Shown one piece after another: positions 134 through 64,000 of a stretch of 64,000 nucleotides of DNA. The position numbers and the translations under genes were made by a program. Below the pieces are notes generated by a model. The model did no database searches. It was not told the origin of the DNA and saw nothing but the letters and a program-made list of their open reading frames with translations. Origin of the DNA: Takakia lepidozioides (Eukaryota > Plantae > Bryophyta); NCBI GenBank assembly GCA_030704615.1, contig CM060731.1, positions 14,942,001-15,006,000 of the forward strand, given 5' to 3'. Numbering within the stretch: the first letter of the stretch is position 1; each line of letters opens with the position of its first letter.

Positions 134-541
<408 letters not shown>

Positions 542-2534: not shown

Positions 2535-3890
2535 TCAATATAGGTTGTTTTGTTTTGTTTTGTAGCGTCCTTGAAATCTCCCAAACCATGGGGCCAGCCT
2601 TGGTGCTTGGTGCCCTTGGAAAGCCCTCGATGAGGAGGGGTGCACCGGCTTGGTCTCGTAATTTTTGGACCCGCGGTGTGGGAGATAGGGCGCAAAGATA
2701 TATTTCAATATATGAAGCCTCGACATGGGAGATTCCAAAAATAGCAAAGTGGGCATTCCTGGACCGTTGGAGCCTCGACATGAGAGATATCAACAGGAAG
2801 GTCTCTGATTCAAATCAGGTCGTAGGCTCTGTGAAAAAAATGATTAGATGACATTGGACACTTGAGCCAACGGCACAGGCTACCCTAGTCAATATACGAA
2901 GCGGGACGTTTGTTTTGTTTTGTTTTGTTTTGTCACGTTGAGATGTCCCAAACCGCGAGGCCCTAGCCCTGGTTGCTTGGTACTTTTGGAAAACCCTCGA
3001 CCGGGTGCACGGGCTTGGTTTCATGATTTTTGGACCTGCGGTGTGGGAGATGTGGAATTTCAAGTATTTTGGGTCGCTGGAATCTCACGAAAAATAGCAA
3101 AGTGGGCATTCCTAGACAATGGTTGGAGCCTTGATAGGAGAGATATAAAGGGAAGGGTCTAGGCTCTGTGGAAAAAAAAAATGATTAGACTTGGATGACT
3201 TAGATGACATTGGACACTTAGATGGAGATCATACTTGGGCCTAGACATAGGAGACGCACTTGAATACATAGGAGATTGCACTTGGGCTTACATGACCCTG
3301 GGCACTTGAGCCAACGGCAGAGGCTACCCCAGTCAATATATGAAGCGAGACGATTGTTTTGTTTTGTTTGTCACATTGAGATGTGCCAAACCGCGAGGCC
3401 CCAGCCTTGGTTTGGTACCGTTGGAAAGCCCTTTGACGAGGAGGGGTGCACGGTCTTGGTCTCATGATTTTTGGATGTGCGGTGTGGGAGATGTGGAATT
3501 CCAAGTACTTTTGGTCGCTGGAAATTCCTGAAAAATAGCAAAATATGCATTCTTGGACAATGGTTGGAGCCTCAACATGAGAGATCTCAAGAGAAAGGTC
3601 TCCGGTTCAAATCTGGTCGTAAGCTCAATGGAAAAAAAAGATGGGATATGGCTAAAACAAATTTGAAGTACTTTTGGTCGCTGCACAATGATTGGAGCCT
3701 CAACAGGAGAGGTAGCAAAAGAAAGGTCTCCGGTTCAAATCTGGTCGTAGGCTCTGTGGTCGCCTTGGGCCTCGACATAGGAGGCGCACTGGGATACATA
3801 CGAAATTGCACTTGCTCTTAGATTTCAATTTTTCGCACTTGGGCCTCCACATAGGAGATACATAGAAGATCCTACACTTGGGCTTAGATG
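2535..3890 (+). repeat. Tandem array of about 3.5 diverged 350-450 bp units, interrupted by the Copia element and resuming at about 6845-6875
   Basis: Recurring blocks TTTGTTTTG..CCAAACC, GGAAAGCCCT, GCGGTGTGGGAGAT, AAAAATAGCAAA, TTGGAGCCT and AAGGTCTCCGGTTCAAATCTGGTCGTAGG. The motif GACATTGGACACTT..GCCAACGGCAC recurs on the far side of the Copia. Confidence 0.8.
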
Positions 3891-3893
3891 ACA

Positions 3894-9618: not shown

Positions 9619-12600
9619 CGACAAGTACCCCCAAATGCTATGCCAGATGCTCAAATTCAAAAGAGGTTTCCAAGTATGGCTTCAACTTTGTCTCTCTCCA
9701 ACCTCCATCACTTACCCACCGTTAGTATGCACTGAAGAAGGAAACCTTATAACATATATATATGGGTTCATCTCCAGAATGCCTGGAACAGGTTCTGAGG
9801 TTATTGTTATACGCAATTGACTAACCCACGATTGAAAGGATAACATCCTAAAGCAAGAAGTCTGTGCATAGCACAGAGACTGAAAGAGAAAAAATGTGTG
9901 TACTTCAGATTTTGAGTCGAACTTGGGCCACCCTTATACATCTTCATTTCCAGAAAAAACTCCTCGGGGAGGAAGCTTGGAATTAGAAGAGAGGCACGAA
10001 TTAGAGCCTGACAAGGACCGACCTTTGTCGGTCTTAACTTCTTATGCTGGATGTCCAGTTCAATTATCAACCACTATTCCCTCGCAGTCGTCGATCTAGC
10101 AGCTTTGTTGAGGTGGGTGGCATTTAACGGCACTGCTCACTGGATGCCTGCCTGCTGCTTCTGACGGATTCAAATAATGTCCGCATTCGAAGCTGTTGAA
10201 GAAACTCGTACATGTTTGGACCGCACTCCAAATCCTTCACTGCCACACACGCTCTTCTCCCCCAGGATTCTCTCTGTCTTCCTTGTCATTCCAAGAGAGT
10301 AGAGAGGTTCAGAGGTCAAATCTCCTTTCAAGCTCATGAAAGCTCTTAAGACTGCATATTTATGGTCCGATAGGTACTAACGTCCTCTCACCGCTAGAAC
10401 CTTGGGTATTTTAGTGGACAAAAGCGATCACAGTCATCACAGCACATTTGATAAGAGAGGTTGATGACTGTCAGCTCAGACATCTCCAGAGGCAAGCTAT
10501 GATTGAGAGAAGGGGAGACTGAGAAGATTGCATGGCCAGAGTGGGCAGATTATGAGCCAAGCTTCTTCACATGTCAGAGTCCTCAATCTTGTTTCCAACA
10601 CATTGGTGGTACCCTGTCCTTAACACTTGCACTTCCTTCAGTTTTATCACATCGAGTTCCATTATATTCAGTTCCGTATAGTCCCATACAATCTCACCCA
10701 GTAGTTTCTCCTTAGTGGAAACTAGAAGCCCATTCTTGAACTCGCATGAACAAGAAACTTTATAATCGGATAGACCTTAAGCTGTTTGCAAATATGCATG
10801 GCAAGTATTGGAGTGACTGGCTTCCAGCTTTTACACCCTGGACCAGCTCAATGCTTTGTTGAAGGGTCCCACAAAATTGAAGCCTCATGAAGAAGGTGGT
10901 GAACCTCCCTGTCTGCACCAGTACGGTCCTTCAGCCCAATGTAGCATGTAGCATCCTCTCAGTGCCCACTCGCTCACTCAACGCCTGACAATGTACGATG
11001 TAAGATGTCATGAGTGATAGATTGTCTTATGACAACTCTCTCGATGAATCCACCTGGATTCAATCAAGTGTTGAGCTTACAGTAGTCTCAATCGAGTATT
11101 AAATTGCCAACGGATTGCTTTGGCATGAAGAGATATGGGACTGGCCAGACTCGTAAACACGGCTACGGTGGTAGCTACACAAGACATGTTACAGTACAAA
11201 TCCTGACTGACTTCACAACTACTCATTTGGCCGTGACGTCGTCAATTGAAGATCCACTTTCGCGTAACCATTTCTCTGCAGAAAGCATTTTCTGTGTTGA
11301 GTGCGTGGGAAGAGCGGCTGGTAGAATGTAAGAAGTACGTATTCCGTGCTTCTATCTATTAACTGCGTTTCATTATACATCCCCGAATCAAAGGCCTCCC
11401 ACTACCCGGCAGCCCAGGCCCCAAATCATGGGTATCATGTGCTTCGCAGATCAGCTCAGTGCCATTTACTTATGTTAGAAGTCTGACAAGTGCCGACTGG
11501 AGGAAGGGAGAAGGGTATCCACCAAGCATCCCCAAATCAAAGGCTTCAAGTCATGTAATCACGTGCTTCTTAGATGAGATTACAGGCTTCTCAGACTGTG
11601 GTTTTGTCTGGAAATTTTAAGCAGATAGTCTGCAGCAAGCGTTGAAGGCTTCCCACCCATCATATGCTTATGCGCTGCTCGGGTAAGGTTGCTGTTTTCG
11701 AGTCTGACAAATCTGCGCAACGTTTAAGACCAAGGTGAGGAAAGCGTGTGAGATAAACATATGAGTGGGCTAGAAATGTTTGTCATTGGTGCTGTGTTTC
11801 AGGTACATCGCAAGCAGGGTGCCCTGGCGACGCGTTTTGCTGACGCAAACGCAGTGCGGTTTCAATCAGACGATCATCTTGGCTCAGATGACTCGTGTCA
11901 AGTTGCTCGGCTTTGATCAATAATCTTCTTTCGTCTGGAGATTGAAGAAAGCTACACAGGGTTTGATGATTTCAATCTTCAGTTGATTTTCGAAGAAGAT
12001 ATGGTTACACTAGGCAAAATCAGAAGGTCGACCCCAAGTGCATCACAGCATGGTTGTTTTCTCTTTCTTTCTTTCTTCTCTTTGTTTCGGAGCTTTCGGT
12101 TGGCTAGGCCCGGAGTTTCACGCTCCACGCTCCACAATGTTCCGAAACTGCGCTGTTTTTGCGATGGTCGTGATTTGGGTGAGGGGAGGACAGATGGAGG
12201 CATGATTCATCAGCAGCAATGGAACAACGGAAAGTGCAGTGGAACACGATGGAGGCTCAGTTTGGGAATGCCGATGCTCCTCGTATGGTACTCCTTGTCC
12301 CTCATGCCCAGTGTTTGCGTTGCAGTCTATGAGGAACTTTGCTGATCCGCAATTACTCTGATTGTTTTTTGTTCTCACTTCTCTTATGTGCTGGAATCTT
12401 ATTGTGAGCTATGTCTACTAAGCTGTATCAGACCTTCAAGTGCTTCACAAGCCTTTCACAAGGGAGCTCTATCACCGTGGGCGTTCAGAATCTTTCTTTG
12501 TCCTTCACTCACACCCAAAGACAACTCCAGTAACTTGAATCACATCTGTTTCATGCTAGAAAGCAGTCTAGTATCAACCTCACCCCATACTTCTACCGCG

Positions 12601-19293: not shown

Positions 19294-19817
19294 TGTCGTG
19301 CGCATACATATCGCTACACAACTACATCGCTGTCCAAACCACACCACACATATATGCACAATAAAGTAGTCTAGCACAATGATAACCAAACTAGATAACA
19401 CACACTCTCACACAAAACATGCAATCCCTCAACATCACTCTTTAGATAATAGTCGAGCCAGGGGCACCCCAAGCTATGGGGACTCCACCCCACAACAACC
19501 TACACTCCCATCATAAGCACACTCAGATCTGAAGAATGCAGGAGCTCGGTCGCGCAGGCTCAACTCGAGAGAGATGAGCTGCGCGACTGCCGCTCTCGTG
19601 AAGATAAGACGGACCAGGTGTCAAACTAAACTTGACACCTGATTTAACACTTGACCTAAATCCAAGTGTTAAATACAAATAACTAGTTTTATGCTAGCTG
19701 TTTTCACACTGTGCTTATTTAACTTGACAGCTGTCGTGCGCATACATATCGCTACACAACTACATCGCTGTCCAAACCACACCACATATATGCACAATAA
19801 AGTAGTCTAGCCACAAT
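19294..19817 (-). repeat. G1 3' terminal repeat block B-GC-A-B
   Basis: TGTCGTGCGCATAC...CACAAT occurs at 19294 and 19732. GATAACCAAAC...TTGACA (19381-19729) recurs at 29050-29404. Confidence 0.95.
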
Positions 19818-20072
19818 CGCCCCCCTAGCTGGTGGATAGGTCCCTCTACCTCCAGATAGCTACTACAAGATGTAATAGCCACAGCCGTACTAAGTCCTCT
19901 ATCACTGTCTTATCGTGCTCAAACTACCAACCAAGAGGCCGGGTACAAGAGTAGCCCCATCGTTAGTCGCCGTCTTGCAATCTGTGAACTTGAGCCAGAT
20001 CTCGTGTGTTCAAGGTCTCCTAGTAGCTGGGCCTTGCGTTTCTTGTTAGCCTCCATGGTTGTATCCACTCCA

Positions 20073-23000
20073 CTATCCAATGCAATGTGGACATAACCAA
20101 TCCCCATCCGGAACCATCTCAAGAGGTGGAGTCAAGCATCCCATATGCCAACCTCTAGAGCACCGATCACACACCAGCATGGTGGCTGCCCTTTAGCAGA
20201 CCCACACAACATGCACCTCAAACCTGCAGATACCACTGCCAGGTTTGGGTCAATCCTGCCATCGACATTCGGAAGGTGACATGGCGCACAATTACGCACA
20301 TGGTCCTTCCAAGTTATGCCATCCCGACCCTCCAAGACCAAGACGCCTGAGGGCAAGACCCTCTCGAACCCTCAAAAATAACACGTCCTGCAGTCACATC
20401 CAGGGTCGTAGGAGCAGTCTGCTGCAGATAGACATAGTCACCAGGGTTGAATCTCCGAACCCCAGGACGATAGCCCCCACCACGTATGGTAGCATACCTC
20501 AACGTATCACGGTGTTGTGCAATGGCAAGGTTCTCGAAAGCCATGGGCATGACTCTCTTGAACAACTCTGCACGCTGCTCACATGCACGTGCCCACGTCC
20601 GGATCGTCAAGGTTAAGAACTGTAGCAGCTTCTCTGCGAATGGATGTAGGCAAATCCGGCTCTCGGCCAAAGAGAAGAAAGTATGGTGAGAAGGAGGCAA
20701 GTGATGCTTGCTTGCTGAACCTGTAGCCCATGGCTCCAGGTAACTGAAGGTCCCAATCTCCTAGGTGTCCCTTCTGCAAGCCATACTTGCGCAAACCCCT
20801 CTTTACTGTCTGAACAACTCTCTCTGCCAAGCCATCGGCCTCAGGATGATCCGAGAAGTGGTGCGGTGGTCTATCAAGGCCTTGTCACACAAAGCCTGAA
20901 ACTCCCCCAAGAACTCTCTCCCTTGGTCCGTGAGTACCTCAGCTGGAGCACCGAATCGCTAAGCACACAATCCAAGAATGCATACGCAGCTCCCTCACTA
21001 GCCTTATCAGGCAATGGAACCAATTCAATCCACTTGGAGAAGTGCTCCACCATCACCAACACGTACTTGTTGTGGCGCATGGTCAGTGGCAACGGCCCTG
21101 CGAAGTCAAGACTCACCTGTAGCCCAATCCCATGATCGGAAGAGGGTGCAATTGTGGAGTAGGGGCGTTGAATGAAGCACGCACCCTGTCACACACCATG
21201 CACCTAGCCACAAATTGTTGCACCTCTGTGTGCATACCACGCCACCAATACTGCCCTGCACTGAGTGCGTCGCACCCCAAAATGCCCCAACTCCTCATGG
21301 GCATGCCGCACTAACCGTGCCCGCTGTGTTGGGTGAGGCACAATCCTCACTCGACCATCCTCCCACACTCGGAGCAGGTGTGTCCCCTCCCACCTGAACC
21401 TCTTGGCTCGTTGTAGGATCCGATCCCTCTCCTTGGCAGTCATAGTGGCTGCCGTGTCTCCACTGCGGAGGTAGTCCAACACAACTGAATCCTCATGTAT
21501 ATCTTTGGCGCCACCCTGCTCATTGCTGGCCTCAGGGTCCTCAGACACTTGATCTACAGTCATCCCTGTTGTAGGTCCAACCTGGCCTTCCGCTGCCAAG
21601 ATACACAGAAATGCAGATGCATGCCATCCGGGCACCATCTCCTCGTCCGTCTCACCATGCCACCGAGCTCCAGTGTCATCCTGCTGGCTCGTGCATGGAT
21701 TGCGACTCAACCCATCTGCATTTCGATTGACCAAACCCGGTCGATGCACCACCTGAAAGTCATACTCTTGAAGGATGAGTGCCCACCGTGCAAGCTTCCC
21801 CGTAAGCTTGTCTGACTCCATCAACCACTTGAGTGGTTGGTGATCCGTGACAAGGGTGAAGAGATTGCCGTATAAATAGCACCTGAAGTGTGCCACGGCC
21901 CACACTGCAGCTAAGCATTCTCCCTCATATGAGCTATACTTAGACTCTGCAGCATTGTTCGAGCGGCTAGCATAAGCCACTACGAACTCTCTTCCCTCAT
22001 CATCCACCTGTGTGAGCACCGCTCCAAGCCCCAGCATGCTCCAATCTGTATGCAGCTGAAAAGGACGCCCCCTGATAGTCGTCTCAAGATGGGCGCCGAG
22101 GTCAACCTCGCCTTGAGCTCTTGAAAAGCTTGTTCTTGCTCATCTTCCCACTGCCACTCCTGGTCCACCTTGGTCAGCTTGGTTTAGAGCCTTTGCAATG
22201 GCACTAAATCCCTTAACAAACCGTCTGTAATAGTTTGCTAACCCCATGAAAGCTCGAACTCGGCTCACATCCGTGGGGCGTGGAACCTGTGCAATGGACT
22301 CTACCTTAGTCTGCTGTACCCCCAATCCTCCAGGATATATCATGTGACCCAGATACTCAATCTGGTTGTGGAAAAACTTGCACTTGCCCGGATGTAACTT
22401 CAATCCGTGCGTCCTCAAGCGCTCAAATACCCCCTGAAGGTGTCTCTCATGCTCCTCCACCGTAGCACTAAAGATGATGATGTCATCTATGTAGCACCGA
22501 GCAAACTCCACCCCTGCTAGAATCCTGTCCATGACTCTTTGAAACTCAGCGGGAGCGTTTTTAAGCCCAAATGGTAAGAACCGCCACTGGTATAGGCAAT
22601 CCTTCCCGTGCTCATTGATCCCCCAGAATGCCGTCTTTTGCTTATCCGCCTCCTTGATCGGCAACTGGTGATATCCGGATCGTAAATCCAACGTGCTAAA
22701 GACCTTGGAATGCCCAATGGCATCAAAGATCTCCTCTGGTGTTGGCATGGCATACCTATCGGACTTGGTCTGACGATTTACAGGCCGGTAATCACCGCAC
22801 ATACGTCTCTCCGTCCAATTGCCATAGACATCCTTCTTAGCTGGCATCACTGTGGCTGAAGCATACTCTCCACCAGAGAGCTCCACCAAACCTGCCTCCC
22901 AGAGATCTTGAGTCCTCATCTGAATCAAAGACCTCTCCATGTCACTGTATCTATAGGGTCCGAAAGATTGGCGTGTCAGTGGCCAACTCAATACGGATCT

Positions 23001-26000
23001 CTTGACCCTTCAGTGCTCCCAAGTCCTTCAAACTGAAGGCAAAGCAATTCCTGTAAGCCCTCAGGAACCGCCGTATACGTCGTCTCTCTCCTCCGGTGAC
23101 AATGGGTCCAATATCAGGCTCCCAATTGTCCTCCGTAACTGCAACCTTAAGTCCAGTGGGCTTAGAGGTAGAGAGGACCGTCCCGTGGTTGCTATGCTGC
23201 AACCTCTTGAGCAGTACCCCCTTCCTGCTCAGTCAATGACAAGGCCTCATCCTGCCCCATCATCTCATCATTGAGAACCTCCTCATCCATCACAGCTGCC
23301 TTCGCTGCCAACTCCCTCTGAACCTCGAGCACCTCCCACATGTGCCATGGATGTCTACACCTCGTGGTCCTCACCGGCTCGCCCCACTCGCTGCCTGTAC
23401 CGTCTCGGTAGGCAGAGAGACCGTCAAGGGAAGTGCACTCCGCACTCTACGTTGCTCAGCCATAGCCAAGCTGACAATCCAGGTCAAGCAATTGAGATCC
23501 ATTGCTTGCCCCAACACCTGACGACGTGATGCCTCAGAAAGAGAAGGCACCGCCGTGGTCCCAGTGGAAAACCCCATAGCCCGCTCTCGCTCGTCGGCAT
23601 TAGGCTCCACTAACTGCTGCAACTGAGCATCCCACAGGAGGCCAGGTCCACCATCCCGAAAAGCATGGGATCCTGGGAAGCTGAGCAGTGTAGGTAATGC
23701 TGCTCGTGGTTGACCCACCCTGTTGACCACTGCCAAAGGCGAACGGTCATCGTGTCTCACACGTTGAGACTGCCTTCCTGTGTCCAAAATGCCATCCACG
23801 GTGAGGTGTGCTGGCCGCTGCACCCCATCAAATGCACGCTTGAGCAGTGCGGGTGGCATCAAGTTAGTCCACCATAGTCGTGGACGATGAGCCCGTGACC
23901 CCACTGCAGCTGCATCCAGCAATACTGCTGACCCAAGCCACGACCGGACTTGATGCACACTGGCCATCACCCTGGCCCGAGAATCACCCATCAGTGGCAC
24001 ATTCTCCAAGATGTATGCCGGAGATACAGCCTGATGAAGCTGCAAGTGGCGCAAAATCCGCACCATCTCCCAAAACAGACCCGTCCTCGAGTCTCGCAAT
24101 CCATTGCCATGCCCGGCTGATGAATGCCCTTGGCAGGGCCAACCTGCCACTACCAGATCAATGGAGCCAACCCGCTCCAAATCCTGCGCCCCCAGCAACG
24201 CAATGTCTGCTGGCAAGGCCTGCTGATATCCACGAACTGCAGACACGGCAACAACTCAGGGTGCTGCTGCACCACTGAGCAACATGGCGCAGTGAGACGC
24301 GTCGTGCAGTCTCATCCCTCTCCACATACAGGTAACGTCGAACTCGTACACCTGCCTGCAGCACTGCAGCCAATCCAGTGCTGATCCCGCCAAATAAGTC
24401 CAGAAGGCATATGCCTTCATCCGGTCGCTGCCACACAAGAGGTGTGGTGTCCAATGGCGACAACTGAGGTGGCCCTGGTGCAATCACCGCACTCTCCTCC
24501 TCTCCTGACGGTACAAAAGCTTCTACCCAAGCTTGTTGCACCCGTCCATCAGCAGCGTGCTGCAAATCCTTGCTCGTACCCCACAACGAGTGTGAGCAAC
24601 CATGGCAGGCAACTCCGCCGTACCATGCATGTCATCCTGCTCTGCTGGAGGTGGCACATCCTCTGCATGGGCATTGCCTTCCAGCAACTCTCCAGGCCAA
24701 CTAACTGCAGCTGTGAAGGCGGCTAGTGTTGGCATCTTGCCCCGCTGGCAGCTGCAATACCCCCAATGAATGTCACAGGGAGCTGTGCACGGCGACCATC
24801 CCCTGACTGCCATCCAGGCCTGTAGGATGCTGACTCCTCCCAAAATCCAGGGTGAAGCCCATGGGGTATAACACTGCCCCCACCAACGAGGACATCGTAA
24901 GAGACCGCGTCTGTCACAATGGCCTTGGCTCGCATCACTGAGCCATCTACAGGATGATCCGGCTGCAGTCTAATAGCCAACTGATGCCGTGTCATGCCGC
25001 GAGCCTGCTCTGATCCTCCCAGAGATGTCTGTATCTGGAAAGGACAAGGCTCCATATCCGCCTCCATGAGGCCCAAACCTGCAATAGCAGCTCTGCCCAA
25101 CATCAGTGGCTGAGCTCCTGAGTCCAACAAGACCCGCAGTGGCCCTACTTCTTTGCCCCGGTCCACTCAAAGTGAAAATGCCTCCCTGGTTGTCTAACAA
25201 GACAACTCCAGGTGTCACCATGGCGCGCTCAATGGCTGGCCTAGCTGGCAGCTCCGTCAAAGCTGCAACTTGCCATGGCGCAGCCGTGGCAGTCTTGACC
25301 CTCAAATCCGAGGATCCCTCTGCCACTACACCTTCCACTAACTCCGCAGAAGATGAAGTGACCTCCCCACTCTCACAGAGTGTTGCTGCTAGTCTGAACA
25401 CTGCAGCTGGTCTCACCCCCGGCGTCGCAATCATGTTGCCGAGAACAGTGGGGCCTGACACACAGAGGTGGCTGCCCCAATAACACACCGGCCGCACTAG
25501 CCTTGGCAGCAGGAGTCAATGCTGCACGTGTAGCTCTCCCCAATGGCATAGTAACCTCCGCCTCGGTAACAGTCAGAACTAGGTGCCATGGATGGCGTCG
25601 ACACAGTCTCCGCCAATGTGAATGACTGAGGAAGCCTTGCCTGACGGCTTGCCTCCCCACGCTGTGGATCCAATTCCACCTCTGCACCTCGTGGCTCAGG
25701 AACTCGTGCTGCTCCTCGAGTCACGGCTGCAGCAGACTCCACCTGCTCTAGTGGTAGTGCTGCTCCGCACATAAATCCCATGCCTCCCATATCTCCTCCC
25801 TCAGGAGCAGGAGGTGGACCATCCCGCCTGGGAGCCTACCGCCTGAGCTATAGCCATGGCAGCGAGCCTCGCTTGAAGCCTTGGCCATGCCTTGGTCAAC
25901 ACCCTGACCTCCGCGTCCTTGGCCATGTGAGCTTGCCCTTGGCCTGCACCTCGTGCCCGACCACCTCGTCCTCTTTGGGCTGGTCCACCTCGCCCCCGGC

Positions 26001-27292
26001 CACCATTGTTCCCTTGGAACTGGCCTGGGCGCAACTCAGGATGCAAGTCATAACACTGGGCATCTCCATGCCCATACTTGCCACAATGCCCACACTGCAA
26101 CTGTGCAGGCTGTGCTTGTGCCGGCCTTCTGCCACTCTCTGGGCAATCTCTCTTGACATGGGGTCCTCCACATGTCCAACATATCACCCCTGGTTGCTGT
26201 TGGCCTGCAAAAGATGCCACGGGCCTCTGCACCTGAGGTCCCCTGTAAGCTCCATGGAACTTGGGCTGGGCAACCTTGCCCCCCTGACCACGCTGTTGGG
26301 CAGTCCCTTGTGCTTGTGGGCTGACAGCTGTGCCCGTACAGGCATGTCCTTGCCAAATCCAATTGTAACAACTCGCTCCTCCACCATGTTGAGCTCAATC
26401 CGCTCAGCCAGCAGAAACACATCTGCTAATGTGGGTTGGGCTGCTTGTAACAGGGTTGCATCTCGCACCCTTCTCTTGAGCTCCTTGTCCAGAATTCCAT
26501 ACCAAAACTGGATTGCCTGAGCTTCAGTAACCCCTTGGGTCACACTTATCAAGCGCCTCATACGAGTGTACGCCTCTCGCAGGCTCTCACTGGGTTTGCG
26601 CTGGAAGTCTTGCAAACTTCGCAGCTTCTCTGTCCGTACACCTTGGTAGTTCCTCCGCAACTCCTGGAAGAACTCCACCACCGGGTTGAATCTAGGCACA
26701 TGTGTTGTAGTCGTGGCAGTAGTACCTTTTGAACTGGTACCACCTTCTACCAGCACTACTTGCTCCACTACTAGTGCTGGCAGTGGGAGCTATTGGTACT
26801 GATGCAGCTACTGGTCGCGTCGTGCCTCGAGTAATGGAGACGTAGTCAGGGTGACCAATACATCCTCCACTCCTCAATCTCTGCTTCATGTCCTCGCCTG
26901 AACTCGTGGTAATCGTCCATAGGCGGGGCTTCCAAATGCTGGAACAGTCCCTTCCACGCCATGAATGGGGTGAATAGCTGTGGATTGCGCATCTGCTGCA
27001 AATCACACCAGCTGTCGAACTCTGGATAAAGTCATCCAACTCGATTGTGCCCACAGCTCCAGAGTACCTACGAGGCCCCTTGGTAGCTCCACATCTCCTC
27101 CATGTCGTCCACAACAATGGCGAATGAAAGTGCACACCTGTTGATGAAGCCTCCGAGTCTGTGTCTGACTCTACAGTAATTGAGGGTGGCGGTGAAGGTG
27201 GTCTGAACGAATACCTCGTCTGTGAACCCACTCTCACTGTACTGCTGTAGCCGTACTCCCCTCAAAACCCTTGGGTAACTCCGTAATGACAC
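20073..27292 (-). pseudogene. G1 gag-pol polyprotein (Gag, 2 zinc knuckles, protease, DNMT, RT, RNase H, integrase, PHD), broken by small indels
   Basis: CWTCGGPHVKRDC and CGHCGKYGHGDAQC; VLLDSGAQ; LDLRSGYHQ, PFGLKNAP, YIDD; YSSYEGECLA, TDHQPL; H-H-C-C integrase zinc finger, SLDFAGP, AERVVQTVK; stop after WLCPHCIG. Start position approximate. Confidence 0.92.
23450..24420 (-). CDS. DNMT3-like C5 cytosine DNA methyltransferase domain inside G1 pol, between protease and RT
   Basis: Motif I LLDLFGGISTG, II YVERD, IV IDLVVAGWPCQGHS (catalytic Cys), VI ILENV, VIII AHRPRLWWTN, IX ERERAMGF..GTT, X RRQVLGQAMD, in canonical order. One frameshift near 24275. Confidence 0.92.
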
Positions 27293-29049
27293 TCACAATG
27301 TGCACCTCCTCCACGTGACACTATAAGGCTCTAGTACTAATCTAATAGTGACACGGGTGGGCACCTGTTGCAGTCTAAGGGTCATATCCCAATGGCTCAG
27401 GGCACCTGCACCTGCATCCACCGCAAGAACTCCTATGGTTGGCTGGTCATCAACCCAGCCTCACCAAGAAGAAACACTGGTGGTCTTGCTGGTCATCACT
27501 CCAGCCTCACCACCGACAGCATACTCTAGGATTGACCGGTGATCAAATCCGGCCTAATCCCTATGAAAGCAAGCGCCCACACAAAACCAACATGGCGCAC
27601 AGTCAAGCATGCAGGTGTTGGGGGGGATCCAAACACAAGAAATCAAAACATCAACACCCCCACACCAAAATCCAGCAGCAACGCTGATCCTGCAGAATAT
27701 CCCAGCCCAAAACCCCGGACTGACTGGCCTCCACCAAGAGAGGCTTTGGCAACTACAAGTACAAGGTAATGAAAATAGTACAGAGATGGGGGGAAGAATA
27801 GAAGCCGCCCAAGCAAGATCTAATCCTGATCTATGCTATCAACTTCCAGACTTCTCTCAAAGTGCCTCGCTCTGCATGATGGTAAGGTGTAGGAGGTATA
27901 TCTATGTCCAGAAACCTGCCACTAACTTGTCCCAAGCTACAGTAGCTCGCTCTAACCAACCCTCCTCCTCTTTCTGCCAGGTAGAGACAAAGCAACACTC
28001 TGCTATCTCCCGCTCACTGAACACTAAAGAAAACAAAGGTAGGGTCTGATAGTCTCTCAACTCGAAAGCTTTGAGACGGTTGCGGGTGTCCTTCATTGCG
28101 AATGACTGCATCGCCTTCAAACAGAACAAACTTGTCATTGCTAATGAACCCCCGCTCGTGGTTGCCTTGTGCAGAGCGGTCCGCTGCAACACTGTCTAAT
28201 TGCACAAACTTGTGCAGCTCCTGCTCCTCTGCTCCAGTACACCACGGCCTTGTGGCTGAACACCTTGGTCCCCGGGGCTGTTTGGCTGTGTTCCAAGCCT
28301 AGCTTTCACCCACTTTGGTATTTCACCTACAGCTGCAGAACTGCTGGCTCCAACAGAGTTCTGACTGTCCAAGGCGATATTGAGGCCCTCAATGCCAACT
28401 ACAGCAGTCTGTTGTCTACTGCTAATGCCTGACTCCCAGTATGCAATCAACTCGTCCAACTGTTCTCCACTCAAATCAGTCTGAGTTCCTTGGGAAACAT
28501 AAATCGTGTCCCCTTGTGTGCACAGCTAAGAGAAGAGACCTGCCCTTCAATTACGTCCTCATTTCCCCCAGCCATGCAAGAGTACATCCACCAATTTGTC
28601 TCTCATATAGACCAGCACAGGTTCTAGAGACAGATTGTGGATCTTTTGATGGCACACTCACACTCTAAAAATTCCATAGATTTTTAGCAGAGTCCCCAAA
28701 ACAGAAACCTGCATCCAGCCGTCCTCAACATAGCGTCCCACTCCCTCTGGGCCTTGCCATCACACCACCAGCTGCCATCGACATATCCTCCGCAGCCGGC
28801 GACGCCCTTACAGTGGAAGCACACCTCGCCAATGCCAACAGAAATATGGGCAGACCACCATTACTCTCTCTTCTACCACACCATTGCGACTGGAGATGTG
28901 AGATGAACTCAAGCTAGAGCCGTTCTATGCTCCTTGCTTGAGCTGCGTACAAGACCATGACCATCTATATTATAATAGTGCTTAAAAAAACAAAAACATC
29001 ATATCTAGCTTAGCACTGGAAAACTAGATAGTGCTCATCTCTCTCGAGT

Positions 29050-29404
29050 GATAACCAAACTAGATAAGGACACACACTCTCAACACAAGAAATATGCAAT
29101 CCCTCAACATCACTCTTTAAGATAATAGTCGAGCCAGGGGCACCCCAAGCTATGGGACTCACCCCACAAACAACCTACACTCCCATCATAAGCACACTCA
29201 GATCTGAAGAATGCAGGAGCTCGGTCGCGCAGGCTCAACTCGAGAGAGAGGAGCTGCGCGACTGCCGCTCTCGTGAAGATAAGACGGACCAGGTGTCAAA
29301 CTAAACTTGACACCTGATTTAACACTTGACCTAAATCCAAGTGTTAAATACAAATAACTAGTTTTATGCTAGCTGTTTTCACACTGTGCTTATTTAACTT
29401 GACA
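29050..29404 (-). repeat. G1 5' terminal repeat (A only)
   Basis: Near-identical to 19381-19729. Ends TTGACA on +, followed by the TSD. Confidence 0.95.
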
Positions 29405-30207: not shown

Positions 30208-30352
30208 GTAAAAGGTATGACACCTCCGCAAGGAGGTTGGATCACAGCAGGATGGTGGATAACTTTGTGACACCAATTGTGGATTGACCACCGCGACCAC
30301 TTCCAATAAAGTTTGTGCCCATTGCCAGTGGTGGATAACCAGCGGATATAGA
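30208..30352 (-). repeat. Dispersed repeat of about 145 bp; a paralogue at 47005-47141 + 52081-52090 is split by element G4
   Basis: Shared GGTTATCCAC..TGGCAATGGGCACAAACTT..TGGAAGTGGT..AATTGGTGTCACAAAGTTATCCACCATCCT..GGAGGTGTCATACCTT. Confidence 0.85.
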
Positions 30353-31667
30353 GGATCAAGCACCCTGGGAAAGTTATGGCTCCAGTCAACTCGGCTCTGA
30401 ACCTTCTATTGCGGGTTCCGCTCGGATTGTCCGTGAAATCGGGATTTCCCTTGTCTGCGTTGTTGGTACTTCTATTTCCATTTCCCACAAAAGGTGTTAA
30501 GGGGCAGTTGTTTCACCTCTTTCTTATCTCGCTTGTCTAGCTGCCTCCGGAGAATTATCGACATGATCTGAAACCAGTCCATGTTTTGCCGCAAAGATGT
30601 TTAATTTTCCCTAGCCTTGCAGACGCTGGTCATGACATGTTTTATTGGGTGATACCCAAGCCTATGAGGGTAAGTTATTGTATGTCGTAGTTTGTTGTAT
30701 CTCCTTCATGTTGTCGTGCGCATACATATCGCTACACAACTACATCGCTGTCCAAAACCACACAACACATGTGCACACCACACACTAGTATACCACTAGT
30801 CTACCACTAGTCCAGGTCCAACCACTAGGCTACAACTAGTCAGTCACTAGGCTGCCACTACGCTGCCCACTATGGCAGTCACTAGTCCACACAATGATAA
30901 AGAAGAAGAATACAAGCACAAGCTCATGCGAGCTCACAAAGCTGAAGCATAAACTCATGCATATATAACCTCATCACTCAAATACAAGTCAAGCCAAGTG
31001 CACCCCACGCCATGGGGAATCCACACTACGGCGCCATAGCTAGGCGCGGTGAGGCTCAACTCGAGAAAGATGAGCCTCCCGCGCTTGCCGTGAAGATAAC
31101 CACTCCAGGGCCTAAATCTGCCTTGACCCCTGGATTGACACTTGGGCCAATCCCAAATGTCAATATGTAAAAGCTAGCTATTTCCTAGCTAGTTTCACAC
31201 TAGTGGTAAAATAACTTGACAGCTGTCGTGCGCATACATATCGCTACACAACTACATCGCTGTCCAAAACCACACAACACATGTGCACACCACACACTAG
31301 TATACCACTAGCCACTAGTCCAGCCACTAGTCCAACCACTAGGCTACAACTAGTCAGTCACTAGGCTGCCACTACGCTGCCCACTATGGCAGTCACTAGT
31401 CCACACAATCGCCCCCCTAGCTGGTGCTTAGGTCCCTCTAAGTCCAGGTAGCCACAAGATGTGATAGTGACCATAGCCTCACTAAGTCCTCCACCACTAT
31501 CCCTACTACACTCAAACTCGATAGATCAAGAGGCCGGGTGCAAGAGTTGCCCCATCGTTAGTCGCCGTCTTGCAACCTGTGAACTTGAGCTTGGGATCTC
31601 ATGTATTGACTCCTATGAGCTTGGCCTCCCATGTCTTGTTAGCTGCCTCCAGTCATGTCCACTGCCA

Positions 31668-38950
<7,283 letters not shown>

Positions 38951-39631
38951 GACACTCAACCGGTCATGAACATGTCCCTAACCCCTCTCACAAGGTAACC
39001 GAGAACCTGTTGCGGCTTATGGTTTGGAATACTAAGTTCCTAACATAGCCTACACCTGTACCTGCATCCACCGCAAGCACTCCTATGGTGGCTGGTCATC
39101 ACCCCAGCCTCACCATCGACAGCATGCTCTAGGACTGGCCGGTGATCAAATCCGGACCAATCACCTATAAAAACAAGCGCCCACACAAAACTAGCATGGC
39201 GCACAGTCAAGCATGCAGGTATGGAGGGGATCCAAACACAAGAAATCAGACGACAACTCCCCCCACCAAAAACAACTCCACGGTGTTGCTCCTGCAAGGA
39301 CACCCCAGCCCAAACCCGGACTGACTCTTGCCTCCACCTACGGAAAGGTCTTGGCCTAATGAGAGGGTGGAAACTACGAGGAAGAGAAGCTAAAGCAATG
39401 CCTAACCCCAGCATGCCCTCATCCCAACACTCTTCCTCTCCTCTCCCTCACTTGCATGACCATGGGAATATCATGAAGATACTCCTCAAACCGCCCTCCA
39501 CGAGCTTCAAAATTCGGCCTTCCAGACCACATGCCAGTCCTTAGGCAGTCCACCAGTGCCTCCACGAGTCAGCACAGGCCGTCCACAGGTCAACACGGGC
39601 CACACCAGCACAGGCCCACACAGCTCACTTC

Positions 39632-40168
39632 CACAGGGCACAGCCTGTCACAGCCCCTCACAGCCCGTCACAGCCCCAAAGGCCCAGGCACGCCTGTCAC
39701 AGCCCCTCACAGCCCGTCACAGCCCCAAAGGCCATGGGCACGGCCTGTCACAGCCCCTCACAGCCCGTCACAGCCTCAAAGGCCATGGGCACAGCCTGTC
39801 ACAGCTCGCCACAAGCCTGTCACAGCCCGTCACAGCCGCACAGGCCTCAGGCACAGCCTGTCACAGCCCGCACAGCCCGTCACAGCCCCAAAGGCCACTG
39901 GGCACAGCCTGTCACAGCCTGACACAGCCCGTCACAGCCCCACAGGGCACAGGGCACAGCCTGTCACAGCCCATCACAGCCCATCACAGGTCACAGCTTG
40001 CCACAGCCTGTCACAGCCCGTCACAGCCCCACAGGCCACAGGGCACAGCCTGTCACAGCCCCTCAAGCCCGTCACAGCCTCAAAGGCCTCAGGCACGGCC
40101 TATCACAGCCTGACACAGCCCGTCACAGCCCCACAGGGCACAGGGCACAGCCTGTCACAGCCCATCAC
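39632..40168. repeat. Minisatellite of 9-10 bp CACAGCC(T/C)GT units with a roughly 50-bp higher-order period, in the G2 5' internal region
   Basis: Dozens of CACAGCCTGT / CACAGCCCGT / CACAGCCCCT units. Confidence 0.95.
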
Positions 40169-40664
40169 ATGGCCGCTCTGGCAGTTTAGCCATTTCTCCA
40201 AGGGGTTAGCCACGCCAAGCTAGGGTTGTGTGTCTCTGGACTCTAGGCTTCTTTCCACCGAGCTATGGTGGCTGTGAGGAAATCAGCAAGGTATCCTTGC
40301 TCTTTCGGCTCCCACACACCACCATAGTAGCCCCAAGCCATGAGGTGGTTGCCACAACCAAGCCTTCTTTCTCACTTAGCCTCCCCAAACACGCCACTAA
40401 ACTCAATGGCAAACAACCAAGCCCTGCTGGTTCCCAGCCCTTGTGAGCACTCATTCAAGCACTCCCCTCATTGGCCATAGCATCTGTCTTAGAGCCTATT
40501 CCAGCCCTCTACACCTGTTGCTTCAAGAGTTGCGCTCCCTTCAAGCTTGAAGTTGAAACCCCAACTCACATAGGCCCTACAAGTGCTTTCTTTCACTCCA
40601 AGTGGAAACCAGCCCTAGACCTTCCGTTCTAGCTCTCTAAGGCTTGAAAACAAGAGCCTCAATG

Positions 40665-41000
40665 GGCTGAAGGCATGCTCCACACATGCCCCACTCTCAC
40701 CATAAGAGAATCAGCTCCTTTGCTTCATTTCTTGCACCCACAAACCTGATAATACAAGCTTCAGCAGGCTGAAAGCATGCTCTACATGCCCTACAGGGAA
40801 ACCAGCCCCTTCCTTCCTTTCTTGCACTCCCACACCTAAAAGTGCAAGCCTTCACCAGGCTGATAGCATGCTCCACACATACATTGCCCTCACATAAGGG
40901 AAGTCAGCCCTTCCCTCTTCCTTGCTTGCCCTCCAAGCTTGAAGATGGAAGCTTCAATGAGCTGAATACATGCTCCACACATGCAACCTCTTCACACAAG
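40665..41000. repeat. Four diverged tandem units of about 95-100 bp in the G2 5' internal region
   Basis: GCTGA..(G/A)CATGCTC(C/T)ACA..CAGCCC recurs near 40669, 40771, 40862 and 40964. Confidence 0.7.
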
Positions 41001-44000
41001 AGATATCAGCCCCCTATCTTGGCTCCTTGGCTCCTTGATGCTCTCTCTATGACAAGACTAAGCACTCCATAGCCTTTGCCAAGCTCCTGAAACCCTAAGG
41101 CTTACATTTCCAGCCACAAGACACTTCTCTTGTGGTGCAAGAACTCTTCTTCCAAGCTCTGAAACCTAGGTGCACATTCCATGGCCTTGCCGCACCTCTT
41201 AGCTCCTGATCCAGCCCTGCTCTTGCCATGACAAGAGCCCTCTCAATGCTGAAGCTCGAGATTGAAACCCAATCTCACCATACTCCACAAAGTGCACTGA
41301 TTTGCCCCAAGCAAAATCAGCCCTTTCGCTTGGTCTTGCAATCCTTCACACAATGAAAGCTCGCATTCCCAAGTCCAGTTCTCAGCTTTGCCACCAAAGC
41401 CACTATAACCTGCTCTTGACTGGTCCTCTTCCCAATCGTGCTTGCTCATGCATGTACACAATCTGGAACCATCAAGGTGCTCTGGAATTACCTGCAGCAT
41501 GGTGCTTTCATCTCTGAAGCTGAAGATCGAATGCCAAGGTCTACCACCTCGTAACCCACATCGCCTCCGCTTCTAACAACTAAGAGCTCCACGGTGCTCC
41601 TTGCATAACAACTTGGTTTCTCTCATTCTCAAGCAAAAACCACAAGTGCTACAACTAACTCGTATCTGGCACTCACAGATACGAGCTGATCTTTCTCGAG
41701 TGATAAAGAAGAAGAATACAAGCACAAGCTCATGCGAGCTCACAAAGCTGAAGCATAAACTCATGCATATATAACCTCATCACTCAAATACAAGTCAAGC
41801 CAAGTGCACCCCACGCCATGGGGAATCCACACTACGGCGCCATAGCTAGGCGCGGTGAGGCTCAACTCGAGAAAGATGAGCCTCCCGCGCTTGCCGTGAA
41901 GATAACCACTCCAGGGCCTAAATCTGCCTTGACCCCTGGATTGACACTTGGGCCAATCCCAAATGTCAATATGTAAAAGCTAGCTATTTCCTAGCTAGTT
42001 TCACACTAGTGGTAAAATAACTTGACAATGTTGTTAATTTGCATCATATTTTATTTGTTTGTAATATTATGTGGTTTGTTTGTAAGATGTTTTAGAAACT
42101 AACATTGCAGTGTGATTTGCAGTCCCAATTGGCATGGGTTGGGCAGATTGGTCCAACCCCTTTTGCATGCAGGCGACCCGGATTATGCTTTGATGTGCCC
42201 AGAAGACTAGTGAAGGATTGGCCATCAATAGCGTACATCCCCAATCCCAAAGATTGTTGGGATGACAATACCATCTTGGAGTACACATAGCTATGTGAAT
42301 CTATGTTGACAATCCGACTTGCTGTCTCTTATGATCCATTGCTGAATTCCACCGATTCTTCACACGACGATGATTTGTTCGTCGCGCCTCCACGCGGAGT
42401 TGCTGCCATCCGTAATTTTGTGCTCTATTATCAACGTGAGCTTTATGTCAGAAAGCCAATCTTCTCAATCACTAGATGTGGGATGAAGCAACATATTGCC
42501 CATGATGGATTGATCCGTGGAGTTTCACGATCAAATCAACGATGAAATCAATCATTGACATGAATATGAATATTCCGAGGAATTAGATACGAGGGAATTG
42601 GAAAAATATCTAGTATGCTGCACAAGTAATACATAATATGTCATAAGCTCATTTGAGGCATTTTAATCAACCATCTTACATAACATTTGGTTCTTAAAAG
42701 AGACAAAGAGTCTAGCCTAAAATAAGAGATTGTTTAATTCTTCTAACTAGACTTTCTTTAGCTTCCCATGGCTTCTCAATGGGTGAGGCGCCTTTGGGTG
42801 GTTCACTGTACCTTCTGGTTCGCGCCTTTCCAGAGGAGATTTGTGTTTTGTCGATTAGAAGACGTAACTCTTCCAATGGAAATCTTAGTTGAAAGTGTCC
42901 AATTCCCGAAAGTGGGCGGATCCTAAAACGAGTGTTGTTTGACTAATCATAGCTGGAAAGAGATGACTTTTTGATGTGGAAACGTGGTCGGAAGTAGTCT
43001 GAAAGGGAGTTTGAAGAAATTTCTGCCCTTTACAACTTTACTGTGACAATGATGGGCTACTTGGAATACTGTCAGCAAAGCTTGAAACATGTTGATACAA
43101 TGAGTTGCAAAATTTGTCTTGCTGGTGCTACAGCCTTGACGCCTGGGGTTCAAGTTATTGATTGGCATGCAATTTTAGAACTACACCCTTGTTTGCAAGA
43201 GGATCTGCACAGCTGTTTGCCTGAAATGGCCATAGGGGATTTGCTGGCAACCTTTTGGAGACGTTAGCACTCTAGACTATGGTCATATATCTGTGAAGAA
43301 CCTACAGCTTCACTATGGGGTGACGTCAACTGATCTCTAGCCAATCTTGCCTCAGCATCACACAACATTCTCCCTCTAGGATTTGCACGGATCCGACGAT
43401 AATCATGTTACAGGTTCATTTAATGTCAGTGTAAGGGTTGGCTTTGGCATCATACCAGGAAGCAAAATGTTGATTCTTTGCCGATGTAACCCTCTATGTT
43501 ATACAGAGGTGACACATGTGGTTGCACTCTCAGTCAAACCGTCCTGAGAAATGGCTAGAGAGGTGAACTTAAATATGTCATGGGAAAGACAAAGATAGAA
43601 ACAGTTTGATGACGACAAGGGCCCATGGAACAAAGTAGAAAAACGAATTTAAATTTGTGGGAAGGCCAAAGCACCCAAGAGACATAAGAACAAGAACCCA
43701 TGAACCACACAAGAAACAAATGGTAGTACGAACAACTAAGCGTTGTGTGAAGGCAAAATGCCTCAGAAAGACAGTAAGAAAGAAAATCTGCAATGTCGTG
43801 TGTGTTTGTAACAGTGCACAAAGTCCACATTACTGGACATCAGAAGAAGTGAAGAATAAAGAATGAAGTTGGGAACAAGCGGAAGTGGTGGTTGGACTAG
43901 CTCCAACCAACGTCTTCTAGTTGTGCATGCCCATGTGTATGCAAAGATTCTGAGAATTTATAATATGTCCTTGTCAACATCTGTTGATGTTGGTAATACT

Positions 44001-60935: not shown

Positions 60936-63900
60936 TGTCGTGCACCTAAGCATCGTGCCACAACATACATCGCTGTCCACCACACAATCTAAGCACACAA
61001 TCCTAGAAAGCTATACCACAATAGATAAGAGATGAGAAATGAGAGAAGTAGAAGACAATGAAAGCTCTCAAAACATGAAGCAATCACATGAAGAACAAGC
61101 CCTAGTCCTTCCAAGTAAAATCCACTCTATCACAAACTAAGTCAAGCCAATGGCACCTTTGCTAAAGGAATCCACCCTACAAAGCCCTCAACACACTCCC
61201 TCTCAATACCTAGAGCTATGGAGGTGAGAAAAACTCATGGAGGCTCAACTACAAGAAGATGAGCCTCCTCACCACTCACAAGGGGAAAACCTATCTCCAT
61301 GTCTCAAGTGAGGCTCGACACCTCACTTGGCATGTGAGACCAAATGAAGTCCCAACACACGAAATATAGATATAAATATCTAAAATGTCCTAGTTAACTA
61401 TAAGTAGGTAATTCTAGATAACCATGACTAAAACCATGACAGCTGTCGTGCACCTAAGCATCGTGCCACAACATACATCGCTGTCCACCACACAATCTAA
61501 GCACACAATCCTAGAAAGCTATACCACAATCGCCCCCCTAGCTGGTGGTTAGGTCCATCTAACTCCAGATAGCTACAAGATGTAATAGCCACAGCCATAC
61601 TAAGTCCTCTATCACTGTCCCTATTGTACTCAAACTCTATAGACCAAGAGGCCGGGTACAAGAGCAACCCCATCGTTAGTCGCCGTCTTGCAATCTATGA
61701 ACTTGAGTCAGGATCTCGTGTGTTGGTCTCCTAGTAGCTTGGCCTTGCATTTCTTGTTAGCCTTCCATGGTTGTATCCACTCCCACTATCCAATGCAATG
61801 CGGACATAACCAATCCCCATCAGGAACCATCTCAAGAGGTGGAGTCAAGCACCCATATGCCAACCTCTAGAGCATTGATCACACACCAGCATGGTGGCTG
61901 CACTTCTAGCAGACCCACACAACATGCACCTCAAACTTGCAGGTACCACTGCCAGGTTTGGGTTAACCCTTCCATCAACATTTGGAAGGTGACATGGTGC
62001 GCAATTACGCACATGGTCCTTCCAAATCATGCCATCCCGACCCTCCAAGATCAGGACTCCTGAGGGCAACACCTCTTGAACCCTCAAAATAGTACGTCCT
62101 GCAGTCACATCCAAGGTCATAGGAGCAGTCTGCTACAGATAAACATAGTCACCAGGGTTGAATCTCCAAACCCCGGGACGATAGCCCCCACCACGTATGG
62201 TAGCATACCTCAACGTATCACGATGTTGTGCAATGGCAAGGTTCTCGAAAGCCATGGGCATGACTTTCTTGAACAACTCTGCACGCTGCTCACATGCACG
62301 TGCCCACACGTCCGGATCGTCAAGGTTAAGAACTGTAGCAGCTTCTCTGCGAATGGATGTAGGCAAATCCGGCTCTCGGCCAAAGAGAAGAAAGTATGGC
62401 GAGAAGGAGGCAAGTGATGCTTGCTTGCTGAACCTGTAGCCCATGGCTAACCAGGGTAACTGAAGGTCCCAATCTCCTAGGTGTCCCTTCTGCAAGCCAT
62501 ACTTGCGCAAACCCCTCTTTACTGTCTGAACAACTCTCTCTGCCAAGCCATCGGCCTCAGGATGATCCCGAGAAGTGGTGCGGTGGTCTATCAAGGCCTT
62601 ATCACACAAAGCTTGAAACTCCCCCAAGAACTCTCTCCCTTGGTCCGTGAGTACCTCAGCTGGAGCACCGAATCGGCTAAGCACACAATCCAAGAATGCA
62701 TACGCAGCTCCCTCACTAGCCTTATCAGGCAATGGAACCAATTCAATCCACTTGGAGAAGTGTTCCACCATCACCAACACGTACTTGTTATGGCGCATGG
62801 TCAGTGGCAACGGCCCTGCGAAGTCAAGACTCTACCTGTAGCCTAATCCCATGATCGGAAAAGGGTGCAATTGTGGAGTAGGGGCGTTGAATGAAGCACG
62901 CACCCTGTCACACACCATGCACCTAGCCACAAATTGTTGCACCTTTGTGTGCATACCACGCCACCAATACTGCCCCTGCAGTAGACTATGAGTGCGTCGC
63001 ACCCCAAAATGCCCCAACTCCTCATGGGCATGCCGCACTAACCGTGCCCGCTGTGTTGGGTGAGGCACAATCCTCACTCGACCATCCTCCCACACTCGGA
63101 GCAGGTGTGTCCCCTCCCACTTGAACCTCTTGGCTCGTTGTAGGATCCGATCCCTCTCCTTGGCAGTCAGAGTGGCTGCAGTGTCTCCAGTGCGGAGGTA
63201 GTCCAACACAACTGAATCCTCATGTATATCTTTGGTGCCACTTTGCTCATTGCTGGCCTCAGGGTCCTCAGACACTTGATCTACAGTCATCCCTATTGTA
63301 GGTCCAACCTGGCCTTCCGCTGCCAAGATACACGGAAATGCAGATGCATGCCATCCGGGCACCATCTCCTCGTCTGTCTCACCATGCCACCGAGCTCCAG
63401 TATCATCCTGCTGGCTCGTGCATGGATTGCGACTCAATCCATCTGCATTGCGATTGACCAAACCCGGTCGATGCACCACCTGAAAGTCATACTCTTGAAG
63501 GATGAGTGCCCACCGTGCAAGCTTCCCCGTAAGCTTGTCTGACTCCATCAACCACTTGAGTGGTTGGTGATCCGTGAAGGGTGAAGAGATTGCCGTATAG
63601 ATAGCACCTGAAGTGTGCCACGGCCCACACTGCAGCTAAGCATTCTCCCTCATATTAGCTATACTTAGACTCTGCAGCATTGTTCGAGCGGCTAGCATAA
63701 GCCACTACGAACTCTCTTCCCTCATCATCCACCTGTGTGAGCACCGCTCCAAGCCCCAGCATGCTCCAATCTGTATGCAGCTGAAAAGGACGCCCCCTGA
63801 TAGGTCGTCTCAAGATGGGCGCCGAGGTCAACCTCGCCTTGAGCTCTTGAAAAGCTTGTTCTTGCTCTCTCCCACTGCCACTCCTGGTCCACCTTGGTCA

Positions 63901-64000
63901 GCTTGGTTAGAGCCTTTGCAATGGCACTAAATCCCTTAACAAACCATCTATAATAGTTTGCTAACCCCATGAAAGCTCGAACTCGACTCACATCCGTGGG
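60936..64000 (-). mobile_element. G3: 3' part of a third member of the G1/G2 Gypsy family (runs off the window; the DNMT region would lie outside)
   Basis: Repeat B at 60936-61022 and 61444-61530 (identical); repeat A at 61023-61441. Junction TGACA-GC-TGTCG. PPT at 61531-61541. Pol nearly identical to G1. Confidence 0.93.
61786..64000 (-). pseudogene. G3 pol C-terminal part: RT connection, RNase H, integrase, PHD finger
   Basis: [69 protein letters not shown]. Contains frameshifts and a premature stop. Confidence 0.92.

Follow-up and report, generated by a model that had tools for sequence, protein, structure and literature searches.

In a 64,000-nucleotide stretch of the Takakia lepidozioides genome (assembly GCA_030704615.1, contig CM060731.1, positions 14,942,001 to 15,006,000; hereafter the window), two Ty3/Gypsy-type retrotransposons on the minus strand, G1 (19294..29404) and G2 (30712..42027), encode a DNMT3-like C5 methyltransferase domain between protease and reverse transcriptase (RT). 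Judged by sequence, the domain resembles DNMT3A/3B more than it does DRM, DNMT2, or bacterial enzymes, and it is under purifying selection; it closes a Gag-protease frame ahead of a conserved in-frame stop codon. We consider it fairly probable that the enzyme is made at capsid level, is packaged in the particle, and methylates the new cDNA of the element before integration. The element type, streptophyte Gypsy-DNMT3, is already known, and by their sequence the elements described here have every testable feature of it.

Location and Identity of the Methyltransferase Domain

The domain spans 24418-23446 in G1 and 36049-35077 in G2, about 324 codons in each, and is flanked by the protease motif LLDSGA (25130 and 36762, respectively) and the RT motif YIDD (22493 and 34098), all on the minus strand. 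In G1 we located DLFGGISTG (24400), YVERDE (24331), WPCQG (24141), YILENV (24015), AHRPRLWWTN (23892), ERERAMGF (23592), and LGQAMD (23514), and the motif set of G2 is identical. C5 methyltransferase motifs I, IV (PC), VI (ENV), VIII (RxR), IX, and X are present, in the order I to X. The first-pass annotation of this DNA had claimed a complete domain of about 320 residues in both elements, and this holds, each copy being frameshifted (breaks near 24274 and 24246 in G1 and near 35773 and 35619 in G2). When the open G1 piece 23374-24255 was submitted to Pfam it matched PF00145 at E=2.2e-13 (50.8 bits, cut-off 22), in agreement with the family first proposed; three pieces of G2, submitted singly, gave no match. 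A cluster (atlas) search returned PF00145 clusters only. The catalytic Cys is kept in 76 of 78 aligned family positions and the Glu of ENV in 79 of 81, the misses in G2 being alignment edges at its frameshifts.

The likeness to DNMT3 and the non-permuted motif order, both noted at first reading, stood up to comparison. DNMT3A/3B ranked first by similarity among solved relatives, whether single sequence, profile, or structure was used. A profile of 35 family sequences gave E=5e-24 for DNMT3A, 1e-8 for DRM2, and 4e-7 for M.HhaI, and P0001, the whole domain nearest to that of the window, gave a structure model (predicted local distance difference test score 88) with DNMT3A/3B as its first matches. 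DNMT2-type RNA enzymes fell far below DNMT3 in the single-sequence comparison (E 0.11 vs 3e-7). DRM identity was rejected, as the motifs run from I to X and are not rearranged (VI-X before I-V). The domain shares fold and motifs with the DNMT3A/3B and plant DRM2 entries of the PDB but differs from them in its low identity (20-23%) and in having no PWWP, ADD, or UBA domains. Methyl transfer to cytosine in DNA is its predicted activity.

Frameshifts, Selection, and Copy Number

Neither copy in the window is a single open frame in this assembly, each domain containing two frameshifts. These are likely errors of long-read assembly, because most gaps in the well-aligned part of the G1-G2 alignment are of 1-2 nt, many of them within short runs, because no in-frame stop occurs in 1075 filtered G1/G2 codon pairs, and because the window and public contigs from the same organism differ by small insertions at both G1 breaks. 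Copy-specific decay is the alternative.

The good conservation between the two copies that had been pointed out at the outset is reflected in the ratio of nonsynonymous to synonymous substitution rates (dN/dS), which is not near 1. For G1 versus G2 it is 0.15 in the DNMT domain (286 codons), 0.09 in RT-RNase H, and 0.155 in integrase-PHD; the filter retains well-matching codons, which may lower dN, and under a looser filter the DNMT value is 0.22. Between divergent intact loci the DNMT ratio is 0.08-0.17, and old moss copies, which are decaying, give 0.45-0.62. The family has a high copy number in this host: 17,277 and 20,835 contigs from two runs on one sample align to 1.8 kb of sequence.

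A Conserved Stop Codon between DNMT and RT

In both elements the Gag-protease-DNMT frame ends about 85-95 codons past the domain at an in-frame TAG-CAA-CCA (23186..23194 in G1, 34802-34794 in G2, minus strand), a predicted readthrough site, and RT-RNase H-integrase-PHD follows in the same frame. We surveyed 79 related loci with a match to the C-terminal part of the DNMT domain, 71 of which offered enough DNA. The homologous codon could be located in 60 of the 71 and was always a stop (37 TAG-CAA, 16 TAA-CAA, 4 TAG-TAA, 2 TAG-CAG, 1 TAG-TAG). Ten of the other 11 were re-examined; L025 has TAG, while L039 and L068 have TAC. The arrangement is seen intact in L074, where 1369 open codons are followed by TAG-CAG-TTA and a further 1047 open codons in the same frame, and L082 is built likewise with TAG-CAA-TCA. 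Among the stored proteins inspected, 25 of 26 end shortly past the DNMT domain. An internal Met start for the RT frame was rejected, the first Met in L074 and L082 being at 117, inside RT, as was ribosomal frameshifting, RT being in frame with the stop.

Readthrough of stop codons is known from retroelements, as in SIRE1 env and murine leukaemia virus gag-pol. The context UAG-CAR-YYA is the plant (tobamovirus) readthrough consensus, for which 3' stems are common helpers (PMC3159437). The elements here share both the stop context and a predicted 3' stem with the tobamoviruses; unlike there, the stop stands after Gag-protease-DNMT and before RT. The stem begins about 12 nt past the stop (arms in G2 at about 34790-34777 and 34705-34688). 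In G2, L074, L079, and L082 the calculated pairing energy of its arms is -22.7 to -32.6 kcal/mol, lower than at all 99 control positions in each of the four, and L080 comes near this. The arms pair inside clades and not between them. The conserved stop and the clade-specific stem therefore point to readthrough as the source of RT-RNase H-integrase-PHD, which would place the DNMT at the level of Gag. The proposal that the enzyme is embedded in Pol thus stands as to its position between protease and RT and fails as to its frame, which belongs with Gag and protease; the accompanying idea of packaging gains strength, because the enzyme would be made together with Gag.

Split Repeats, Proposed Self-Priming, and Palindromic Junctions

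G1 and G2 have the order protease-RT-RNase H-integrase, the DDE triad, TG..CA ends (TGTC...GACA), and 4-bp target duplications (TAGT for G1, ACAT for G2), all as in Ty3/Gypsy elements. The two full matching terminal long terminal repeats (LTRs) of such elements are absent, and the layout is instead A-coding-B-GC-A-B. DIRS, PAT, and Ngaro elements were rejected, as G1 and G2 have an rve integrase and 4-bp duplications instead of a tyrosine recombinase without duplication. In G1, A1 (29049..29404) is 96% identical to A2, and the 3' end (19294..19831) consists of a polypurine tract (19831-19818), B1 (19817-19732), the palindrome GACA-GC-TGTC, A2 (19729-19381), and B2 (19380-19294). In G2, A1 (41701..42027) matches A2 at 100% over 327 nt, and the 3' end (30712..31423) has the tract at 31423-31410, B1 at 31409-31224, the palindrome, A2 at 31221-30896, and B2 at 30895-30712. 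A third element, G3 (60936..64000), is represented by its 3' part only (RNase H, integrase, B-GC-A-B), and its DNMT region would fall outside the window; its end (60936..61544) again shows a polypurine tract, B1 (61530-61444), palindrome, A2, and B2 (61022-60936), with B copies 100% identical. All are on the minus strand, and the purine tract adjoins B1.

Directly after A1 lies a 16-nt site (29033..29048 in G1, 41685..41700 in G2) complementary to a motif within A (near 29254-29239 and at 41881-41866, respectively) at 15 of 16 bases in G1, G2, and L004, controls reaching at most 12. Like complementarity is found in L074 and L082. The sequences differ among the three groups of families, and primer sites swapped across families pair poorly. 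This pattern, that of Tf1/Tcn1, suggests that minus-strand synthesis is self-primed.

The palindrome at the internal B-A joint is unchanged in G1, G2, G3, L004, L013, L079, and L082, while its middle bases vary in L009, L073, and L074. The full split form also occurs at L009, L013, and L073, and L004 is cut by the end of its contig; B-GC-A follows the purine tract in all four, as in G1, G2, and G3. A shorter A-coding-B form, with the purine tract, B, and flank in succession, was found at about 13 distinct loci. Exact 4-bp duplications border both the split form (G1, G2, L073) and the A-coding-B form (L020, L038, L051); of the six A-coding-B loci with both ends, three have exact duplications, two have one mismatch (L039, which is internally deleted, and L049), and one has none (L057). 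B precedes A1 at none of 19 5' ends (17 loci plus G1 and G2). The simplest reading is that integration proceeds from one-LTR and two-LTR circles that would be opened at the palindrome. The integrase of human immunodeficiency virus type 1 is able to cut palindromic junctions of this type (PMC1905944). L074, L079, and L082, the last with 127-nt terminal repeats, resemble collapsed assemblies and were not counted as proof of circles.

Two further observations concern these junctions. At L073 (10838-10856) a 19-nt filler occupies the A2|B2 joint, which is a direct join in other loci, as end joining would give. In the attachment (att) motif the CG has often decayed where B is terminal and is kept at the internal junctions seen, which may reflect age or unequal methylation.

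Distribution and Phylogeny

Homologue searches returned 253, 82, and 54 proteins, the named relatives coming from Marchantia, Calypogeia, Riccia, Sphagnum (about 55-75% identity), Closterium, Chromochloris, Monoraphidium, and Haematococcus, and a profile search gave 626 clusters at E up to 1e-30, a part of which were inspected. In the first-pass annotation the domain was held not to be standard in land-plant LTR elements, with a charophyte precedent. The precedent is real (see below); one-off status is not, relatives being common in bryophytes and green algae.

Trees were calculated with FastTree and drawn with midpoint rooting; they contain no host DNMT3, DNMT1, bacterial, or reference RT rows, and we claim from them no donor and no order of events. 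G1 and G2 group with Marchantia, Calypogeia, and L004 in one clade (support 100), the start of the L004 RT frame being identical to Sphagnum fallax protein P0162. A second clade (36 rows, support 99) has the DNMT placed after RNase H and before integrase, in most cases together with a PHD finger, and its named members are chlorophytes: P0171, P0174, P0265, P0266, and P0285 from Haematococcus and P0172 from Chromochloris. The DNMT tree and the RT tree give the same two main clades. The single match in Symbiodinium, P0293, sits on a very long branch outside the family. Prokaryote genomes also gave one match, L082, a 9.3-kb element in a bin labelled as a cyanobacterium, which is probably plant or algal contamination. 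Viral contigs gave one weak match and none to chlorophyte-type elements, and none of the 78 viral-contig loci bearing the junction 14-mer encodes RT or DNMT. Extra Pfam matches in P0192 and P0270 (G-patch and peptidase S26) may be annotation fusions.

Comparison with Known Systems

The charophyte precedent is KnitGypsy-Dnmt3 of Klebsormidium nitens, which is described as carrying a Dnmt3-related domain (Ka/Ks under 0.2) alongside Gypsy domains and as having DIRS-like repeats (de Mendoza et al. 2018, PMC5890265). As far as that description goes, the elements here resemble it in their Gypsy domains, split repeats, and purifying selection and in a Dnmt3-like domain without introns or rearrangement that is part of the polyprotein frame, with the qualification that in G1 and G2 the stop separates the DNMT from RT, which follows in the same frame. 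They differ in occurring in a land plant at high copy number and in having the DNMT close the Gag-protease frame before a conserved stop. The self-priming site, purine tract, palindromic att junction, and A-coding-B forms do not figure in the available description of KnitGypsy-Dnmt3. No protein named Klebsormidium was among our homologue-search matches. SymbioDIRS-Dnmt3 likewise combines a retroelement-borne DNMT3 with split direct repeats; unlike the elements here, it is a DIRS element with a tyrosine recombinase (PMC5890265).

Tf1/Sushi and plant Tcn1 elements share a primer site complementary to their own 5' region, without tRNA, but have ordinary LTR pairs and a chromodomain, in place of which the elements here have a PHD finger (Neumann et al. 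2019, PMC6317226). No chromodomain match was found in 20 relatives scanned, and the main text of that survey, so far as it was available, mentions neither a PHD finger nor an element-borne methyltransferase. EpiLTRs and DAM-LTRs likewise belong to the Ty3 type and combine methyltransferases with chromatin readers; their DNMT, a sister of DNMT4, stands at the 3' end of pol, unlike here, and the same preprint treats streptophyte Gypsy-DNMT3 as a separate known acquisition (bioRxiv 10.64898/2026.05.21.726589). Later papers also take streptophyte Gypsy-DNMT3 as known.

We found no account in the literature of the spread in land plants, the stop, the self-priming site, the att palindrome, the circle model, or the chlorophyte variant, some of which subscription papers, Repbase reports, or the supplement of PMC5890265 may hold. 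The accessible parts of PMC11982613, PMC6673714, PMC10952607, PMC8566409, PMC9477723, PMC12344493, and 10.1101/2023.09.13.557621 contain nothing on these elements. Split repeats would escape LTR finders. Annotated "DNA methyltransferase" and hypothetical proteins of Marchantia, Sphagnum, and Calypogeia (e.g., Mp4g09160 and Mp8g17980) are retroelement frames and can inflate counts of host DNMTs.

A Model for the Role of the Methyltransferase

The mechanism that we favour starts from the DNMT domain, its position, the stop, and the selection described above. Readthrough of UAG-CAR-YYA, helped by the 3' stem, would yield RT-RNase H-integrase-PHD, such that DNMT outnumbers RT and integrase. With the minus strand self-primed and the plus strand begun at the purine tract before B, the reverse-transcribed LTR would by the established LTR scheme be B-GC-A, of which the integrated form would be a circular permutation. 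The cDNA would circularise and be opened by the DDE integrase at the palindrome ACA-GC-TGT; two-LTR circles would then yield A-coding-B-GC-A-B and one-LTR circles A-coding-B. In the last and weakest step, DNMT released by the protease would methylate the long-lived double-stranded intermediate, and new copies would arrive methylated, resembling host heterochromatin, and quiet. The substrate is the most speculative part of this scheme; cDNA is our best guess, because synthesis together with Gag would bring many copies of the enzyme into the particle, next to a double-stranded intermediate. Retrotransposon-borne enzymes can have such an activity, that of Symbiodinium methylating CG de novo in yeast (PMC5890265).

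Several observations weigh against this scheme. The Klebsormidium enzyme was inactive in yeast, where human DNMT3B also failed, a result its authors call inconclusive (PMC5890265). CpG observed/expected is 0.51 in the elements and 0.51-0.60 in their flanks, with no element-specific methylation footprint. As regards the stop, the 60 loci are mostly one moss family sampled repeatedly, some five independent families in all; at L039 and L068 the position is occupied by a sense codon; the stem is weak in L012 and L006 (13 of 99 and 10 of 95 controls equally low); and folding energies and z-scores of whole windows do not single out the one after the stop. Proteins P0281, P0158, and P0160 and Closterium P0197 fuse DNMT to RT without a stop, and these and the chlorophyte-type relatives imply that Gag-level dosage is not needed throughout the family. 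As regards integration, of 11 5' ends tested for the primer match, four, mostly old copies, lacked it and one was borderline, L057 has no target duplication and those of L039 and L049 are imperfect, and A-coding-B could arise through deletion between B1 and B2 or through assembly collapse.

A different role, which we think unlikely, is control of integration, the DNMT marking one of two att palindromes; integrase would then cut at the left palindrome and leave the internal one intact for the next round. The att palindrome CACGACA-GC-TGTC holds CG and CAG/CTG, and the cut appears one-sided, with no B-GC before A1 at the 19 5' ends and B-GC-A after the purine tract in seven elements. DNMT and split repeats also occur together in Klebsormidium and in every family examined here, all of these being DNMT-bearing, but the one-sidedness could equally stem from circle formation or integrase loading. 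More boldly, and again with little probability, the elements would form an old green-plant Ty3 lineage in which integrase reopens one- and two-LTR circles at a palindrome inside the unique 3' region (U3) and a capsid-level DNMT3, encoded ahead of a leaky stop, determines by methylating the circle which palindrome will be cut, a logic like that of restriction-modification.

Quite unlikely, in our estimate, is action in trans in the nucleus, where surplus Gag-protease-DNMT would methylate resident copies or host chromatin and, with the PHD finger, limit copy number or shape insertion sites. Gag-level expression would leave such a surplus, integrase carries the PHD finger, and a brake that benefits the host has been raised as an idea (PMC5890265); yet the DNMT frame has no targeting domain, the benefit would be poorly heritable for the element while dN/dS is as low as in integrase, and the family is at very high copy number in this host. 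We regard as improbable that the substrate is element RNA, modified to 5-methylcytosine, or that the domain is a nucleic-acid-binding structural part of the particle. Gag-level stoichiometry would suit either role, as would the Klebsormidium enzyme with no visible DNA activity (PMC5890265), but the DNMT2-type RNA enzymes rank far below DNMT3 (E values above) and the catalytic motifs are all kept. That the domain is a passenger, recently captured or decaying, or else a nested gene of its own, and plays no part in transposition, as the frameshifts of both window copies and the decaying old moss copies might suggest, is very improbable and already largely refuted by its intronless state, its same position in relatives down to about 50% identity, the low dN/dS between divergent intact loci, and the two main clades shared by the DNMT and RT trees.

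The favoured scheme, methylation of new cDNA in the particle, offers three predictions: DNMT at the level of Gag, methylated cDNA circles, and a defined att palindrome. What retrotransposon-borne DNA methyltransferases do has been unsettled since 2018, and the question is now testable in Marchantia, a genetic model. If the scheme is true, an LTR element integrating from circles by means of a DDE integrase would depart from the rule of linear cDNA.

Other Features of the Window

The remaining parts of G1 and G2, all on the minus strand, are gag with zinc-knuckle-like motifs (26030..27100 in G1, 38754 to about 37700 in G2), the aspartyl protease region (24760..25180 in G1), RT and RNase H (21700..23130 and 33316-34719), and integrase with its C-terminal PHD-like finger (20100..21300 in G1, with HHCC, with D 21107, D 20928, and E 20824, and with the finger from 20171; 32909 to about 31690 in G2). 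The two elements are mosaics. Synonymous divergence between them is 1.1 in gag (26030-27100 vs 37700-38754) and 0.14-0.18 in protease, DNMT, RT, and integrase, and the A repeats of G1 and G2 are only about 70% alike, which suggests recombination between subfamilies. The 2.9-kb leader of G2 contains a tandem array with a 10-nt core and a 51-nt unit (39636-40169).

A plain Gypsy element at 47149-51932 (minus strand) has two 318-nt LTRs (95.6% identical) and no DNMT match; a segment of its LTR is found again, in inverted orientation, near 30217-30349. An internally deleted Copia element lies at 3881-6841 (minus strand), with LTRs of 174-185 nt. Host genes, which identify the host as a plant, are represented by a hexokinase exon (134-538, plus strand) and a xyloglucan endotransglycosylase (7178-7669, minus strand), a likely upstream exon of which lies near 9376-9681.

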